Numbered from the stretch's first letter, positions 29,674 through 45,950 are shown. The stretch: DNA of 64,000 bases from Escherichia coli (GCF_029227855.1 NZ_CP074356.1), one strand, 5' to 3'. The notes: generated from the letters alone by a model not told the origin. Made by a program: numbers and translations.

Positions 29674-37656
<7,983 letters not shown>

Positions 37657-37968
37657 GCTTACCTTCCCTGAACGAGCTAACATAAATGCGCCCTTTCTAG
37701 CACAGCGAAAAAATATAAATCCTGATAGCAATATGATTGAAAATTAATAACTTTTCGTTAGGCAGTTTTGGGTGTGAGTTGCAAGAGGGGAGACTACTGA
37801 ATTACTCAAGTTTTATAATCGAGGGGAAAATGGTGATGGCGTCCATAGCAAAACGCCCTCAACCATAAAGGTCGAGGGCGCTTAAGATGTCAAAAACCCG
37901 CTATCCGTTAAAAAGCAATGCTCAACTAAGGTCAGTGACATTGCGCTAAAAAGCAAATTTTTAGAATT

Positions 37969-39035: not shown

Positions 39036-39125
39036 GGAGAGATGCCGGAGCGGCTGAACGGACCGGTCTCGAAAACCGGAGTAGGGGCAACTCTACCGGG
39101 GGTTCAAATCCCCCTCTCTCCGCCA
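39036..39125 (+). tRNA. serU: tRNA-Ser (CGA); prophage integration site
   Basis: GGAGAGATGCCGGAGCGGCTGAACGGACCGGTCTCGAAAACCGG...CTCTCCGCCA with long variable arm; integrase gene begins about 50 bp downstream. Confidence 0.9.
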
Positions 39126-39177
39126 AAATTCAATCACTTATACATCATTAAGTCAGTGACAAAAATCACACTTGGAA

Positions 39178-40203
39178 TTACTTGGAATATTTTCTTGGAA
39201 TATTTTCAGGTAACGGGACATCAAGTGTCGGTGAAACTTTAACCTTCCTGTCATAGATTAGCACTTGCCCCTCGGTTTTGTGACCAGAGAAAAGTTGCTT
39301 ATCCCGACTGCTTCCTTCATAGTCTGAAATTCCTTTCGCCTTCAGATCATGAAAGGTGAAGTCGGTTAAAATACCTGAAATTTTGCCTGCGCGATTTCTT
39401 GCTTCTACCCACATTTCGTTAAAGCCTTTGTACATATATCGGTTGCCGTACTGATTGCTGATTACATAGGCGGATGTTGGTAACTGTTTTGCTTTTTCGA
39501 TCGCCGCCTGTAATCGTGGACTCCATGCTTTTATCTGTTTTTTTCCTGTTTTCCCTTGCTGGATAAAGATCCCGTCGTTTCCAATCTGCTCCCATTTCAG
39601 CGATAACACATCGGAAACCCTCGCTGCACACAGATAGGCAATTTCCATTGCGATAAAAACAGGAAGAGGTGCAACGCTTAATACTGCCTGGTATTCTTTG
39701 TCGGTTACATATCGTTCGCGGTTTTTGGCCTTGAATTTACTTACACCTGCACATGGGTTAGCCTTCACGTACCCTCGCTCATACCCCCAACTGTAAACGC
39801 GGGACATACTGCTTTTTTCATGGTTGGCTTGCGTTTTACTCTGTTCCCCTCTCTTGTCCATGTATCGACGGATGTGTTCTGGTTTTATGGAATCTGCCGG
39901 CACCTTACCGAATACGGCAAGCAACTTTTTTTGATGTTGCAGATAATCTTTTTGTGTTCTTGGACTGAGGTCACTGTAATAGGCGCTGGCGAGGAATTTT
40001 TCCCACAAGCGACCGAATGTCATTGCACGATCGCGATTATTTACAGTTTCCTCATACTTTTTCCATAAAGCAGCTAAACCATCCTTGATGGCGGTTAGTG
40101 TTACAGATTCTCTGGATGTTGGTTTCCATACATAACTATATTTATTTGGGTATACATTTGGAGGTAATTTTTCGTGTTCAGGATTTTTCCTTCGTCTTCC
40201 CAT
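39178..40203 (-). CDS. int: Phage integrase (tyrosine recombinase)
   Basis: 341-aa ORF starting MGRRRKNPEHEKLPPNVY (lambda-Int-like N-terminus); adjacent to tRNA-Ser. Confidence 0.9.
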   Translation of the reverse strand: MGRRRKNPEHEKLPPNVYPNKYSYVWKPTSRESVTLTAIKDGLAALWKKYEETVNNRDRAMTFGRLWEKFLASAYYSDLSPRTQKDYLQHQKKLLAVFGKVPADSIKPEHIRRYMDKRGEQSKTQANHEKSSMSRVYSWGYERGYVKANPCAGVSKFKAKNRERYVTDKEYQAVLSVAPLPVFIAMEIAYLCAARVSDVLSLKWEQIGNDGIFIQQGKTGKKQIKAWSPRLQAAIEKAKQLPTSAYVISNQYGNRYMYKGFNEMWVEARNRAGKISGILTDFTFHDLKAKGISDYEGSSRDKQLFSGHKTEGQVLIYDRKVKVSPTLDVPLPENIPRKYSK

Positions 40204-40406
40204 CAGATCGCACCAAAATTCGGCTCTACCTCGCGTGGTGGTAAAGTTTTATTGCAGGTAAATAGATCCCGGCTGACAATCGGTTTGCCACTACGATTGG
40301 TATAGAACGGAAGCCCGTTTTCCATTAACCATTTTCGCTGGTGGCTTGCATATTTGCAGCCCGTTAATATTAGCAATTCATCTTCGGTTAAAAATAAGCT
40401 GCTCAT
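40203..40406 (-). CDS. xis: Excisionase-like protein
   Basis: 67-aa ORF immediately upstream of int and overlapping its start. Confidence 0.6.
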   Translation of the reverse strand: MSSLFLTEDELLILTGCKYASHQRKWLMENGLPFYTNRSGKPIVSRDLFTCNKTLPPREVEPNFGAI

Positions 40407-40464
40407 AGCTATATCTCATAACCGCCGCTAACTATATACGGTTAGCGGCAATTAGGGTTGAACA

Positions 40465-42906
40465 TTAAAAATCAGCCTGACTCGGGATCAGTTTTTGCCA
40501 GATAGCTGAAACGTATTTTGCCTGGTAACGAGCGTCATCAAGTGCATTATGGCGCTCACCTTCGAATGGAATAGCCGTTCTGGCATCGAAGTCTATGGCT
40601 TTCCCCAGCTCAACGATTGTGCGTACATCGCGATCGTTGTAGTAACGCCACGGGCAGGGGATCCCCTGCCGTTCGTATGAACGGCGCAAAATCGTGTTGT
40701 CGAAGTTGGCTCCATTTCCCCAGACCTGAACAAAAAATTCACCGGAGTTTTCGTCGATAAATTCCCGCAATTGTAACAGTGCATCATCTAACGGGATTTC
40801 ATCGGTCATAATGGCAGATTGCGCTTCGCGTGATTGCTTAAGCCACCATTTAATGGTGTCCCGATCAATGACTCCGCCAGCAGTTTCCAGATCGATAGTC
40901 TTACTAAATTCCGGTCCCATATCTCCGGTTTGCGGATCGAAAAATATTGCACCTATTGAGATGATCGGGGCATCAGGATTTTTTCCCATGGTTTCAAGGT
41001 CGATCATTAGATGGTCACACGTCCTGCTGGTGGATGTGATTTCGTGATGACCATTCACCGTAATTAAGGGATCTGCCGTCTCGCCAGTTTTACTATCGCT
41101 GGCGTGGTCCTGAGCGCTGCCAGCATTCTCCTTGTGTGGATGTTCAGCGCCTTCCATTTCCTCCGGATCATTTTCCTGAACTTCAACCTGATTCTCTTCA
41201 TCGAATGTTTTCTGGTATGTTGCGTCGCCCATCACCGCGCCACAATCAGGGCAGTTGCCGCCACCGCTCTGACCGCAGGCGGAGCAGACTTTTTCCGGTT
41301 CCTGTTGCGCTACTGGTTCGGATTGTTTCGTTTCTGGCTCGTTTTGTAACGCATTTGGGCTGTTTTGTTCCGCTTTTTGGTCGTTCCGTTCCGATTCATG
41401 CTGGTTCTGGTTCACAGAATCGCGAGTCTGGATCCCCTTGACCCATTTCGGATCATTAGGGTCGCTAATCCCCTCAACAAATTCACCACGCGATACAGCA
41501 AGTAACTTATCGGCGTCAGGCTGGCTGATATTGGCTGCCTGCATAATTTTGTTTACTTCGTCAGCGGTGACTTTTACTTGGTTAGCGGAACTCACCTGCG
41601 ACTGAGCATCCAGCGACTGCGCGTTCTGGCAATGTTCAGTTGTATCCGGTTCCATTGTTTCAGTTGTTGCCTGTTCACCTGCCATTGCGTCAGATGGTTG
41701 TGGTTTTTCTTCTTCTGTTTCACGCTCAGTAACCACCTCGCGGTTAATTTCTTCCAGGATATCTTTTTCCGGCGTATGCCGGGCAGCTGTGAGAGTTTCC
41801 TTGCTGGGGTTCTCGTGATCAGTTTCCGTCAAATAGGCGTTGATATACCCCTGAAGGCGTCCCGGGTAGTGATAAAATTCAGGGTGTGCGCTTCGGATAA
41901 GTGCAAAAATAGCGGCGCGGGAATAGTCCAGAATACCCGGGGTTGCACGAAGTGCTGCGGACCATTCTTTGAACGGACTTTCTTTTTTCAGGACTACTTC
42001 TTTTGCGCGACGATAAACGCTGCCCGGAATTTCATAAATATTAAAATCCATCGGAAGTGTGGCTGCTGCAATCTCCACATCCAGTGTGTCGAGGGTGTGT
42101 ACTAAATTCGGACTGCGATCGGTTTTGTTCCCACCGCCAGCATTAGCACCGGAAGCCGTGCGGGTGATGCGTGAAACACGATTTCCTTTCATCCACTCTT
42201 TTGTCAGCAGACCCCGATCAGTGTAGTCAGCGTCCAGGTATGCTTCGAAAAAAGCAGTTATTAGTCCCAGGTCTGAATTACCAGGATTAGGGAAAACTTT
42301 GTCAGTGTCACGAACCAGTTTGTGGAGGTCGCGAATCTCCAGCGAGTCGAGCAGACTGGTTTTATGCGAAATAGCCAGGGCAGTAACAGCCGGTAGTTCT
42401 TCAGCCCGTGCAATGTGTAATGCCTGGAGTTCGTCGCGTGAAACGTGCGTTACTGGTTTTTCGCTGCCGTGTTGAGCAAGCCAACGAATGGGCAGTTCCT
42501 GACCGGAGACAGGTAGAAGCATGCTCTCCTCAATCTCAGTCATGTCTTCGCCGTTGATGTTGGTATTATCAGTGCTGGCTGATTTGTCCTGAACAGAGGG
42601 GGAAGGGCCGATAAATGTCATTGTGATGCCATCTTTCCCGCCTTTTTCATAGCGGTTGCAGAATTCAGTATCAAACACGCCTTCTGGCGGAAGGTCGTCA
42701 ACAACGGGCAAATTGACGCGGACGGGTTTTTTAAAGTCGTCTTCATCATAATCGTTGTCATCCATTGCGGTAATGCAGCGGGAGATTGCAACAGATAATT
42801 TTTTTGCTGTAGTCCAGTAAAAACCACCTTTAATTCCTAGGCGTTTTCTTACTTTGTCATTTTTTGCTTCGCAATATAGTGCAAATTCTTCTTTATCAGT
42901 GCTCAT
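40465..42906 (-). CDS. Prophage exonuclease (813 aa) with C-terminal DEDD/DnaQ-like 3'-5' exonuclease domain
   Basis: C-terminal motifs MIDLETMG and HNALDDA; CxxC...CxxC zinc-ribbon-like motif (CSACG...CPDCG); long acidic low-complexity middle. Confidence 0.7.
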
Positions 42907-42999
42907 TATTGATAAACCTCATCACAGATTTAAGGGTGAACAAATCTCTGCCATTGCTGACATATAAGAATGAAACTGGATATTTATTACGGTGCTGTT

Positions 43000-43191
43000 T
43001 TAAAATCCTGCCGGGATTTCGTTATTATCCTGGTGAATAACTTTATCGACCGGATAACAGTTGCCTGGAATTTTCTGTTCGGTTGCTGCTGCCATACATT
43101 CCTGCATTGTTCTGTGAACACTGACTGCAATATCAACTGGCTCTCCGGAAACAAGAAAAACCGTCAGAATAAGTGCAAATACTGGATTCAT
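43000..43191 (-). CDS. ydfD: YdfD-like small lysis/membrane protein
   Basis: Internal start MNPVFALILTVFLVSGEPVDIAVSVHRTMQECM... (63 aa); start overlaps the dicB stop. Confidence 0.6.
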   Translation of the reverse strand: MNPVFALILTVFLVSGEPVDIAVSVHRTMQECMAAATEQKIPGNCYPVDKVIHQDNNEIPAGF

Positions 43192-43376
43192 TGTGCACAT
43201 CCTTTTGGCATCAGACGTAAACGGGCCAGCATTGAAACAATGCATACTTTATTTAATAACTCCCGTTCGTGTTTTCTTTTGTTAATGGCCTCTTCAGTAA
43301 ATACAGGATTACTGATAGTGACACCAATTTCAAAACAACCTTCAGACGTATTAACGTTTGGTAATAACGTTTTCAT
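43188..43376 (-). CDS. dicB: Cell-division inhibitor DicB
   Basis: 62-aa ORF MKTLLPNVNTSEGCFEIGVTISNPVFTEEAINKRK... essentially matches the Qin prophage DicB as recalled. Confidence 0.8.
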   Translation of the reverse strand: MKTLLPNVNTSEGCFEIGVTISNPVFTEEAINKRKHERELLNKVCIVSMLARLRLMPKGCAQ

Positions 43377-43544
43377 TATCGCGCCCCAACAATGAGTTTT
43401 GTGATGCGGTGCCTGGTGCCTCCAGGTGACGTTAACCAGTTAACAATTAACGCCGGATACAGAGAATCCACCCATAACACTGTTTTTGGTTTTAACTGTT
43501 CCGCGTGCGCTTAGCCGCATTCACCGCATCACAAAATTCACTTT

Positions 43545-43602
43545 AAAAAGGGCGGCAGAGCAGTCACGGAGTAAAACTGATACCGCCAAACGTCACCAGA
43601 AA
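43545..43602 (-). ncRNA. dicF: DicF small RNA (ftsZ-targeting antisense sRNA)
   Basis: Reverse complement reads TTTCTGGTGACGTTTGGCGGTATCAGTTTTACTCCGTGACTGCTCTGCCGCCCTTTTT, including a terminator hairpin; immediately upstream of dicB. Confidence 0.8.
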
Positions 43603-43943
43603 ATTGATAACAGAGGGCGTTGCAGCGGGGTTGTCACTTAAGCGTATGGTCAACCTGACAACCCGGTGTCCTCAACGGGGGAAGGAATAACCCCGCCATA
43701 CTTACCGCCGCGCCATTTCGCGGATTGCCACAACCGGAAGCGCACGGTCGACGAAAATTTAACGACAGGCTATCTATGAACCAGCTACCTCGCCGTGCGC
43801 TTTCGCGTTATGGTCTGACTTTTCAGGGAAATATCCTTTCAGTAAACTGTCAGTGCCGGATGCTCACCCGTGTCCGGCGCACGCACTCCACCTCACCCGT
43901 GGAGAACTCCTTAATTACTAACCTTAGCTTTGTTGATTAGCTA

Positions 43944-44162
43944 CTAACGCGGGTATGTAATCATTCTGGCAATGCTTAATGCCGCTGCTTTTTCCAGATT
44001 GGTGATATCCTGCTCCAGAGCGGACAGATTTTCAGCCTGCTTAGCCCTGGCTTCATTAGCCCATTTCAGATCCTGCGCTGCATTAATTTTCTGGCGCATC
44101 CACTCATAAAGTTCATCATCGGTATAGTCTGGCGCGATGATGACGGGTTCTCGTTTCTGCAC
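43944..44162 (-). CDS. ydfC: YdfC-like prophage protein
   Basis: 72-aa ORF in the ydfA-ydfB-ydfC-dicF-dicB arrangement. Confidence 0.55.
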   Translation of the reverse strand: MQKREPVIIAPDYTDDELYEWMRQKINAAQDLKWANEARAKQAENLSALEQDITNLEKAAALSIARMITYPR

Positions 44163-44191
44163 GCTGATTCCTCGCGGTGCTGTTTCGCTTA

Positions 44192-44320
44192 TCAGCCGTT
44201 AGATTTTGCCGAACTGGAAAGCGCCTGTTTAAATTCGCTGAAGCTGAGAGCTTCTTCGCCTTCGGCAAGGCCTTCGAAGTATTCTTCGTAAGCCTTTTCC
44301 ATGATTGTGTCGAAATCCAT
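44192..44320 (-). CDS. ydfB: YdfB-like small protein (42 aa)
   Basis: Hand-translated ORF MDFDTIMEKAYEEYFEGLAEGEEALSFSEFKQALSSSAKSNG; below track size cutoff. Confidence 0.55.
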   Translation of the reverse strand: MDFDTIMEKAYEEYFEGLAEGEEALSFSEFKQALSSSAKSNG

Positions 44321-44321
44321 A

Positions 44322-44477
44322 TCACCCACCTGAATTTCTTTCCAGCCAGCGACGCGCTCCAGATTCGGTTTTAAACGTTTTGCTTTTGGTATACGTCATT
44401 GCGGTGAAGGTGCCGTCCTGGTTGGGAAACACGCCGTACACCAGAGATTCGTTGTTGCCAAGATCGATAGTATCCAT
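44322..44477 (-). CDS. ydfA: YdfA-like small protein (DUF1391-like, 51 aa)
   Basis: Internal start MDTIDLGNNESLVYGVFPNQDGTFTAMTYTK within track ORF 44322-44558. Confidence 0.6.
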   Translation of the reverse strand: MDTIDLGNNESLVYGVFPNQDGTFTAMTYTKSKTFKTESGARRWLERNSGG

Positions 44478-44774
44478 GCTGACCTCATTTCCCCTTAACG
44501 CCGGGGTAGCGGAACAAAAACCTGCTGCATAGTTATTAAAGTTGAACCCTGCCGTCATGTTCTTACGCCTCGGGCTGGCTACTTAACCCCTGACCACTGC
44601 CTGGTAACTCGAAGTATTGCCCTGCATTCTGTGGGGCGGGGTGGGTGGTAGGTATATAATGTACTTTTCGTTCATTGTTGTAAAGTACTTTTAGTACATT
44701 TTGTGTGTAAAAAAATGAGATGGGATAAAGTGAAGCACAAACCCGGAGGAAGGCGCTACCGGATTTATGCTGGT

Positions 44775-45194
44775 TTAAGAGGCTTTTTGTTTTTTCTTTC
44801 GTGCTAACTCTTCGTAAATTGCATTGTACTTCTGTTTTTTCTCTTCAAGAGTTTTTAAAAGTTCATCTGTCTCACTGTCAGGGAGCTCGTCCAGAAGGTC
44901 AATGATGATTTTTTGTCTTGGATTTAACTCCTGATAGAAACGTACCTGTCCACTTTCTTCTGTATCCTCTCCCAAAAGATAGGTTGGTGTTGTTCCTATT
45001 AGTGTTGCTAATTCCCTTAATTTCTCCCGGCGAGGAATTGTTTCGCCATTAAACCATTTGCTAACCGCTTTTGGTGTTAATTTCATTCGACGGGCAATTT
45101 CTGCCTGCCTTCCATGTTGTTCATAACCAGCGTTTTCACAGGCTAGCGCAAGCCTACTGGCGAACTCTTTACGCGCTTTATCTTCATGAACCAT
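44775..45194 (-). CDS. Prophage repressor (XRE-family HTH; DicA/RacR/CI-like)
   Basis: 139-aa ORF with HTH (GRQAEIARRMKLTPKAVSKWFNGE); divergent from cro-like gene; same direction as the leftward dicB operon. Confidence 0.7.
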   Translation of the reverse strand: MVHEDKARKEFASRLALACENAGYEQHGRQAEIARRMKLTPKAVSKWFNGETIPRREKLRELATLIGTTPTYLLGEDTEESGQVRFYQELNPRQKIIIDLLDELPDSETDELLKTLEEKKQKYNAIYEELARKKKQKAS

Positions 45195-45273
45195 AAGTTC
45201 AATGATATTCGCTCTTGAATGTACTGTCAGTTCTGTTATAGCATGTACTCAAAGTTCACATTGTGAGGGTGAT
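45195..45273. promoter_or_regulatory. Putative immunity-region operator/promoter interval between repressor and cro-like genes
   Basis: Short divergent intergenic region with repeated ATGTACT(G/C) motifs. Confidence 0.4.
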
Positions 45274-45528
45274 ATGAACCAGAAAACACTTGAAGATGTA
45301 ATCAAAACTGTTCGCGTTGCTGTTGTGGCCGACGTTTGTGGTGTCAGCCAAAGAGCAATCTATAAATGGATGGATAACGGAAAATTGCCTCGCACAGAAT
45401 ATACCGGCGAAACAAATTACGCTGAAAAAATCGCTCTTGCATCAAACGGATTATTTTCTGCCGATGCAATTTTAACTATTGGCAGGAATAAAACTACTAC
45501 GAAAAAGCTGATGGGAGTTGATTCATGA
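45274..45528 (+). CDS. Cro/YdaS-like HTH protein
   Basis: Internal ATG (MNQKTLEDVIKTVRVAVVADVCGVSQRAIYKWMDNGKLP) within track ORF 45202-45528. Confidence 0.6.
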   Translation: MNQKTLEDVIKTVRVAVVADVCGVSQRAIYKWMDNGKLPRTEYTGETNYAEKIALASNGLFSADAILTIGRNKTTTKKLMGVDS

Positions 45529-45950
45529 AAATCAAGCATGAACACATCCGCATGGCGATGAATGCCTGGGCGCATCCGGACGGCGAAAAAGTACCGGCTG
45601 TGAAAATTACCAAAGCGTATTTCGAGCTGGGAATGACGTTCCCGGAACTGTATGACGACAGCCATCCGGAAGCCCTGGCTCGCAATACTCAGAAAATTTT
45701 CCGCTGGGTGGAGAAAGACACCCCTGATGCGGTTAAAAAAATTCAGGCGTTGTTACCAGCTATCGAAAAAGCAATGCCACCTCTGCTGGTGGCCCGAATG
45801 CGCAGTCATAGCTCAGCCTATTTTCGGGAACTAGTGGAGACGCGGGAACGACTGGTGAGAGACGCTGATGATTTTGTCGCAGTGGCGATCGCTGGTTTCA
45901 ACCAGATGAATCGTGGTGGCCCTGCAGGAAATATTGTGGCTGTGCATTGA
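45525..45950 (+). CDS. YdaT-like prophage protein
   Basis: 141-aa ORF translationally coupled to the cro-like gene, in the YdaS/YdaT arrangement of Rac-type prophages. Confidence 0.5.
   Translation: MKIKHEHIRMAMNAWAHPDGEKVPAVKITKAYFELGMTFPELYDDSHPEALARNTQKIFRWVEKDTPDAVKKIQALLPAIEKAMPPLLVARMRSHSSAYFRELVETRERLVRDADDFVAVAIAGFNQMNRGGPAGNIVAVH

Follow-up and report, generated by a model that had tools for sequence, protein, structure and literature searches.

It was found that a prophage gene of Escherichia coli encodes RecE with its catalytic domain and its recT partner exchanged for a nuclease of predicted opposite polarity. The gene lies on the minus strand at positions 40465-42906 of a 64,000-nucleotide stretch (GCF_029227855.1, NZ_CP074356.1). 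This whole stretch is called the window here, and positions are counted from its first letter. In the 813-residue product, an unrelated DEDDh nuclease, whose 3′-5′ activity is predicted, stands in place of the PD-(D/E)XK 5′-3′ nuclease of RecE. The parts of the gene are as follows. Residue numbers are those of the protein, dN/dS is the ratio of nonsynonymous to synonymous substitution rates, and pLDDT is the predicted local distance difference test score of the AlphaFold2 model.

40465..42906, minus strand: whole gene, chimera of the RecE N-terminal region and a DEDDh exonuclease, 813 residues (Pfam, NCBIfam, BLASTP)
42607..42906, minus strand: N-terminal domain 1 (residues 1-100), alpha/beta fold, pLDDT mostly above 90; the Exonuc_VIII match begins within it (residues 57-100)
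42166..42540, minus strand: N-terminal domain 2 (residues 123-247), helical, 93% identical to Rac RecE; dN/dS 0.14 (against Rac)
41812..42123, minus strand: N-terminal domain 3 (residues 262-365), helical, the module found most widely across the family; dN/dS 0.05 (against locus L009)
41023..41811, minus strand: acidic Gln-rich tether (residues 366-628, about 260 residues), predicted to be disordered; dN/dS 0.44-0.75, faster than the folded domains
41443..41490, minus strand: conserved 16-residue motif (residues 473-488) inside the tether; family consensus RGxxxxGISDPxDPKW
41242..41286, minus strand: CxxC-x7-CxxC (C541, C544, C552, C555), a possible zinc knuckle
41059..41063, minus strand: junction of the RecE-derived part and the DEDDh cassette; the homology with Rac recE ends at position 41063, residue 616
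40477..41019, minus strand: DEDDh 3′-5′ exonuclease domain (residues 630-810), DexA/Rv2179c family (Pfam, AlphaFold2, Foldseek); dN/dS 0.13 (against locus L011, dS 1.14)

The RecE N-terminal region is fused to a DEDDh exonuclease domain

The 813-codon open reading frame (ORF) runs uninterrupted from ATG to the stop codon at 40465-40467, and a GAGG Shine-Dalgarno-like element lies 10 nt 5′ of the ATG. The Prokaryotic Genome Annotation Pipeline (PGAP) called the same coding sequence "3′-5′ exonuclease" in another E. coli chromosome, which matches the window at 99.9% identity over 39100-45600. This agrees with the initial annotation, made from the sequence alone, which had described an 813-residue ORF for a large prophage exonuclease. 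Database protein P0001 has the identical sequence, and a variant with a single residue changed occurs on 474 contigs. An internal start at M634, which would yield a free nuclease domain, was rejected since it has no Shine-Dalgarno-like sequence at a suitable spacing.

Residues 1-616 match the RecE equivalog model of NCBIfam (PRK09709) at model positions 1-603 of 877. The score of 945 stays below the cutoff of 1269 because the remainder of the RecE model is unmatched. By BLASTP, residues 58-616 align with residues 50-592 of the K-12 Rac RecE at 59% identity, and Pfam Exonuc_VIII (PF06630) matches residues 57-189 (E 7e-36). As for the RecE nuclease domain, BLASTP of the 813-residue protein gave no similarity past RecE residue 592, and Pfam gave no match to DUF3799. 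Thus, residues 1-616 are the RecE N-terminal region and the protein is RecE with a swapped catalytic domain. The initial annotation had proposed a domain search of the N-terminal part and a comparison with RecE-family proteins; its description of the protein was sound, but the RecE identity of the N-terminal 616 residues had been overlooked. It had also named, as the outcome that would speak against it, full-length RecE homology with a partner gene. The homology ends at residue 616, and the window has no partner gene.

An AlphaFold2 model of the N-terminal part, built on an alignment of 24 family members, has three confident domains with disordered linkers between them. No structural homologue of these domains was found in PDB or BFVD.

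The C-terminal part is a complete DEDDh domain. The Pfam Rv2179c-like family (PF16473) matches residues 632-803 with an E value of 8e-68 and 228 bits (cutoff 27), and the alignment spans positions 2-177 of the 177-position model. All five catalytic residues (D636, E638, D736, H786, and D791) are present as an intact D-x-E, D, H-x4-D set. In the alignment with T4 DexA, D636 and E638 correspond to D7 and E9, D736 to the motif-II Asp (the residue after F118), and H786 and D791 to H186 and D191. Residues 630-810 are modelled by AlphaFold2 with pLDDT above 90 as an RNase H-like alpha/beta fold. A Foldseek search of PDB with this domain gave T4 DexA (8KEL, E 6e-12) as the best match, followed by RNase T, REXO2, and Orn; Cap18 is also among its structural neighbours. 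By sequence, T4 DexA is the only PDB match of the domain. The DEDD-type exonuclease domain reported initially is thus confirmed by the family match, the five catalytic residues, and the model.

The protein has the sequence and the fold of the DexA/Rv2179c DEDDh family. Of the three features that define RecE, it retains the N-terminal region and lacks the nuclease domain and the adjacent recT. The names given to the DEDDh-type gene in public records vary ("exodeoxyribonuclease VIII", "RecE family", "3′-5′ exoribonuclease", "exonuclease"). In several records it is misnamed as exodeoxyribonuclease VIII or "RecE family exodeoxyribonuclease", and these names should not apply.

The two parts are connected by the tether, of which residues 401-628 are predicted by AlphaFold2 to be disordered. 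Asp and Glu account for 14 of the 40 residues at 361-400 and for 13 of the 40 at 561-600, and residues 401-560 are Gln-rich, as expected from the long Glu/Gln-rich region noted at the outset. The motif at residues 473-488 is common to RecE-type and DEDDh-type proteins and is a putative protein-binding motif. The four-cysteine motif had likewise been noted and is present at C541, C544, C552, and C555. It is found in Rac RecE too, and many family members are without it; it is therefore not a defining part of the family. The earlier label "zinc-ribbon-like" is unsupported as a folded domain, because the Pfam DZR match has an E value of 0.095 and the region is modelled with low confidence (pLDDT about 50-60).

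The recT gene accompanies the PD-(D/E)XK cassette and not the RecE scaffold

Is an annealing protein encoded elsewhere in the window? A tblastn search of all 64 kb with RecT, lambda Bet, Erf, a phage single-stranded DNA-binding protein (SSB), lambda Exo, and Abc2 had no match with an E value under 0.1. No annealing protein is listed in the PGAP annotation of a collinear locus either (97-99% identical, window positions 33188 to 64000). The claim that no RecT/Bet-like annealing gene lies nearby therefore holds. A Gam-like tblastn match at 51025-51135 (E 0.002) is 37 residues long, lies on the opposite strand of a YdfU/DUF968 gene, and was treated as a chance match.

In all four PD-(D/E)XK-type loci checked (Rac, L043, L044, and L045), recT lies directly downstream. 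It is absent from all nine DEDDh-type loci, where the genes run straight into xis-int. The nine loci are those of the window, a Stx2a phage, vB_EcoS-640R1, L009/L010, L011, L012, and three E. coli prophages at other attachment sites. The partner gene travels with the C-terminal cassette and not with the RecE scaffold. Since recT keeps to the PD-(D/E)XK cassette, the function of the scaffold is separated from RecT-dependent annealing.

Among the large genes of its leftward operon, the exonuclease gene comes last, ahead of xis-int. The surrounding features are as follows.

39036-39122, plus strand: tRNA-Ser
39178..40203, minus strand: tyrosine integrase gene, adjoining tRNA-Ser; prophage end
40203..40406, minus strand: DUF4224 excisionase-like gene, immediately 3′ of the exonuclease gene; the position of recT in a RecE-type prophage
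43000..44477, minus strand: upstream genes of the leftward operon (DUF1391, ydfB, ydfC, DicF small RNA, dicB, ydfD-like DUF1482)
43550-43601, minus strand: DicF antisense small RNA (full-length Rfam match, 76.7 bits), flanked by ydfC and dicB as it is in K-12 Qin
44656..44684, minus strand: sigma-70-like site 3′ of the repressor gene (44775-45194); candidate pL-type operon promoter by consensus match only

The region from ydfA to ydfD (42915-44515) is 96.6% identical to K-12 Qin. The promoter scan detected no sigma-70-like site directly upstream of the exonuclease gene; on this strand, the candidate closest to it is the site at 44656-44684. Neither the promoter scan nor the terminator scan rose above shuffled expectation. 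The K-12 Qin gene ydfE, which occupies the same slot after ydfD, was considered as a truncated orthologue and rejected, since BLASTP gave no similarity. Domains of YdfE were found in other mosaic members of the family, those with the third C-terminal type described below.

The fusion is common in E. coli

Residues 1-620 matched 265 clusters among 1.84 billion cluster representatives, so the family is narrow. Homologue diversity was taken from representatives clustered at 50%; the unclustered matches to residues 1-620 were near-identical E. coli entries. The same N-terminal modules, mosaically shuffled, carry three alternative C-terminal ends: the PD-(D/E)XK domain of RecE type, the DEDDh domain, and a third domain without annotation. 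The DEDDh end was found in 15 representative clusters, with 52-99% identity to the domain studied here.

To assess the prevalence of the fusion, 5426 complete E. coli genomes were searched with a 501-nt probe across the fusion junction, and a coverage of at least 80% of the probe was required. The junction is present in 4024 of them (about 74%), at up to 8 places per genome, while the canonical recE nuclease end with the start of recT is present in 1730 (32%). The DEDDh version is the commonest of the C-terminal forms of the scaffold in E. coli. With these frequencies, it is among the commonest uncharacterised prophage enzymes of the species. From the 15 diverged clusters, the dN/dS of 0.05-0.14 in the folded domains, and the occurrence in 4024 genomes, the fusion is judged, on sequence grounds, to be old and maintained by selection.

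I searched the literature for RecE with a DEDDh domain, for the Pfam names, and for DexA-like proteins, and found no description of the chimera or its prevalence. The chimera is new to the literature searched. The sequence itself is very common and already annotated, and the domain pair is already recorded in Pfam.

The third C-terminal type is a domain of about 200 residues with an invariant ...KKSLTDAxKKxLSxLGF... motif. It has no match in Pfam, in NCBIfam, or among PDB sequences. It is carried by genes of loci L046 (5001-7996) and L048 (5001-7921) and by proteins P0129, P0179, P0198, P0200, P0203, P0226, and P0265. In both loci examined, a gene of the Sipho_Gp157 family lies 3′ of the third-type gene, and the stop and start codons overlap. 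The motif resembles the conserved helix of annealing proteins of Rad52/Erf/RecT type, but neither hhalign against Erf, Bet, and RecT nor a PDB profile search was significant, so that the likeness is a tentative lead. In another member of the family, P0124 (703 residues), the RecE N-terminal region (to about residue 525) is fused in frame to a RecT domain (Pfam RecT, E 1e-42) and the nuclease is deleted.

Comparison with known exonucleases

Rac RecE shares the N-terminal part (residues 1-616 are homologous to RecE 1-592, including the tether motif and the CxxC..CxxC motif) and the slot at the end of a leftward early operon, where no other large gene stands between it and xis-int. It differs in that its PD-(D/E)XK toroid domain (RecE 606-866) is replaced here by the unrelated DEDDh fold, and recT, ralR, and rcbA are absent from the locus in the window. 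From the first description of the enzyme onwards, no function has been assigned to the RecE N-terminal region of about 600 residues; within full-length RecE, it enhances linear-linear recombination (PMC11611040, PMC11610958).

T4 DexA (PDB 8KEL and 8KEN) has the same DEDDh catalytic set, belongs to PF16473, and is the top structural match. The identity is only 26%, however, and DexA, which comes from a lytic phage, is a stand-alone protein of 227 residues and has extra loops. Those residues of DexA that are reported to recognise 5-hydroxymethylcytosine (5hmC) are not kept: W152 aligns with Y756 and D169 with A770. S87 of DexA aligns with P705.

DexA and its E. coli homologue EcD, of the proposed 5hmC-recognising exonuclease defence HREX, have been reported as 3′-5′ DNA exonucleases (PMC12153337). 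EcD belongs to the same family, and an EcD-like protein of 189 residues is 37% identical to residues 634-806. This EcD-like protein, which has Ala at position 78, was found through the published 5′ primer, and its gene departs from that of EcD at the 3′ end. While EcD stands alone, the protein in the window has a 630-residue N-terminal extension. Moreover, it keeps an Asp (D708) at the position of DexA D90, which is Ala78 in EcD, and lacks the equivalent of D169.

The stand-alone gene of the EcD-like type is found at L025 6401-6991 (an IMG/VR prophage) and in Klebsiella phage ST16-OXA48phi5.4 (L015 4004-4570). It sits in a P2-like early operon in the order int, repressor, cox, DUF4761, exonuclease, ParE-like, and Dam. 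Thus, the "bacterial" defence gene EcD is probably prophage-borne; PMC12153337 makes no mention of prophages.

Further stand-alone relatives are the DEDDh exonucleases of the lambdoid phages mEp235 and PhiR47_1, which are 59-60% identical to residues 631-809 and are encoded at the same end of a leftward operon, near xis-int. They are without the RecE-derived N-terminus, and the mEp235 gene lies inside an Erf-SSB-exonuclease-Abc2 module. Rv2179c/RNase AS of Mycobacterium tuberculosis, which was compared here by Pfam match alone, shares PF16473 and differs in being chromosomal, not phage-borne, in having a single domain, and in being described as a 3′-5′ exoribonuclease.

Proposed role and alternatives

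The initial annotation called the role of the protein (recombination, anti-defence, or DNA processing) unclear, and this still stands, as the biological role given here is an inferred one. The best explanation, to which I give an even chance, is that the protein is an early-lytic 3′-5′ DNA-end exonuclease that is delivered by the RecE scaffold and works without an annealing protein, and not a recombinase of RecET type. By analogy with EcD and T4 DexA, its nearest relatives that have been studied, the C-terminal domain would be a Mg2+-dependent 3′-5′ exonuclease acting on DNA 3′ ends. It would be expressed in the early lytic phase, as the product of the last gene before xis-int in a repressor-controlled leftward operon of dicB type. 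The N-terminal module and the tether motif may direct the enzyme towards its substrate or a host partner, as presumably they do for RecE. The enzyme alone would then trim or degrade the 3′-ended strands of linear DNA; these may belong to intermediates of replication or recombination, to the host, or to foreign DNA.

It is established for the Red/RecET and ExoI/sbcB pathways that annealing proteins and RecA use 3′ tails; digestion in the 3′-5′ direction takes these tails away, and 5′ overhangs are left. This removal of 3′ tails and the lack of an annealing gene at every DEDDh-type locus argue against a RecET-like recombinase. A link of DEDDh exonucleases to DNA transactions is seen in the stand-alone homologue in the module of mEp235.

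Several points weigh against this explanation. The early-lytic timing rests on the operon position and on a promoter scan that is not above shuffled controls. Stand-alone homologues also occur in P2-like early operons without recombination genes. The PF16473 family holds an RNA exonuclease, and Pfam names the family 3′-5′ exoribonuclease after Rv2179c. The activity, polarity, and substrate of the 813-residue protein are predicted only. In addition, no homologue of the N-terminal module, whether by structure or by sequence, points to a function, and the RecE N-terminus has no known role according to reviews (PMC11611040, PMC11610958). The "delivery" role is therefore pure inference.

The alternative that survives best, and which I consider unlikely, is an exclusion nuclease of HREX/EcD type that degrades the modified DNA (5hmC or other) of superinfecting phages and thereby protects the lysogen. 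EcD was reported to digest T4 DNA and to protect cells against T4 (PMC12153337); the similarity of the EcD-like protein to the DEDDh domain and the presence of the gene in most E. coli genomes, often in multiple copies, are in line with such a role. On the other hand, the two residues assigned to 5hmC recognition are not kept, and the Asp at the position of D90, which forms the tetramer in DexA and is absent in EcD, is kept as D708. PADLOC gave no match to the 813-residue protein. The gene is a distal gene of a repressor-controlled lytic operon and has no promoter-like site of its own, a position that favours lytic over lysogenic expression, and the EcD-like gene itself lies in the early operon of a P2-like prophage.

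Could the enzyme instead act on the defences of the host during induction? As a counter-defence enzyme, it would destroy nucleic-acid components of host immunity, such as the multicopy single-stranded DNA (msDNA) of retrons, other defence-made DNA, or RNA 3′ ends. This role ranks below that of an exclusion nuclease and is improbable: no defence or anti-defence family matched the protein, and nothing supports it directly. The placement of the gene among early-lytic genes would suit it, as would the action of DEDDh enzymes on short single-stranded DNA and RNA 3′ ends and the presence of RNase T, Orn, and Cap18 among the structural neighbours. Rac RecE has been found to degrade retron msDNA in vivo, but this triggered the retron toxin and did not disarm it (bioRxiv 10.1101/2020.06.22.160242).

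Lower again in my estimate is a recombination exonuclease whose annealing protein is supplied in trans, either by the RecT, Bet, or Erf of another prophage or by host RecA/RecFOR. The predicted 3′-5′ polarity, by which the tails needed for annealing or for RecA would be destroyed, speaks against it, as does the count of annealing genes (0 of 9 DEDDh-type loci vs. 4 of 4 RecE-type loci). What it can explain is the position of the gene in the recE slot with the whole RecE N-terminal region kept, the part that enhances linear-linear recombination in RecE. The mEp235 homologue, lying between SSB and Abc2 next to Erf, also fits. According to PMC12153337, T4 DexA functions in intron homing, which is compatible with a part in recombination.

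Finally, it is very improbable that the gene is a non-functional relic of illegitimate recombination in a decaying prophage, because, even though the prophage resembles the cryptic Qin, the integrase gene is flagged by PGAP as frameshifted in a near-identical strain, and one relative in a Stx2a phage is frameshifted, the ORF is intact, all the catalytic residues are kept, the folded domains are under the constraint given above, and the fusion occurs in diverged forms across the 15 clusters and in 74% of the E. coli genomes.

A wider reading of the RecE scaffold

Full-length RecE underlies linear-linear recombineering and direct cloning. The DEDDh-type protein is a natural domain swap, by which nucleases of predicted opposite polarity have come to sit on one kind of scaffold, and it offers a handle on the role of the scaffold. 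The RecE-type and DEDDh-type proteins are a ready natural construct pair for probing it.

In a broader and speculative view, for which the chance is small, the RecE N-terminal module is a general plug-in scaffold of enterobacterial lambdoid phages that targets a DNA end or a host factor and carries interchangeable end-effectors. These would be the PD-(D/E)XK nuclease with RecT, the DEDDh nuclease without a partner, and the unannotated domain with the Gp157-like gene. The DEDDh version would then act in conflict and not in recombination, as a nuclease of exclusion or counter-defence by which rival DNA is destroyed at its 3′ ends. The results also bear on the recent claim that the "bacterial" homologues of DexA belong to host defence, as many of them are probably prophage early genes.

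Other observations in the window

The integrase ORF (39178-40203) is 341 residues long in the window, and the Tyr in the GH...Y context is kept near the C-terminus. In the 99.9% identical AST240 locus, the gene was flagged as frameshifted by PGAP. Thus, the prophage may be unable to excise.

A giant ORF at 29674-37731 on the minus strand encodes a YeeJ-like Ig-repeat adhesin of 2685 residues from TTG. Its repeats align ambiguously with those of strain AST240, which suggests variation in the repeat number. The 3′ part of a gene for an RHS element core protein, at about 20034-21800, coincides with a GC-rich block (0.61 vs. about 0.47 in the flanking regions).

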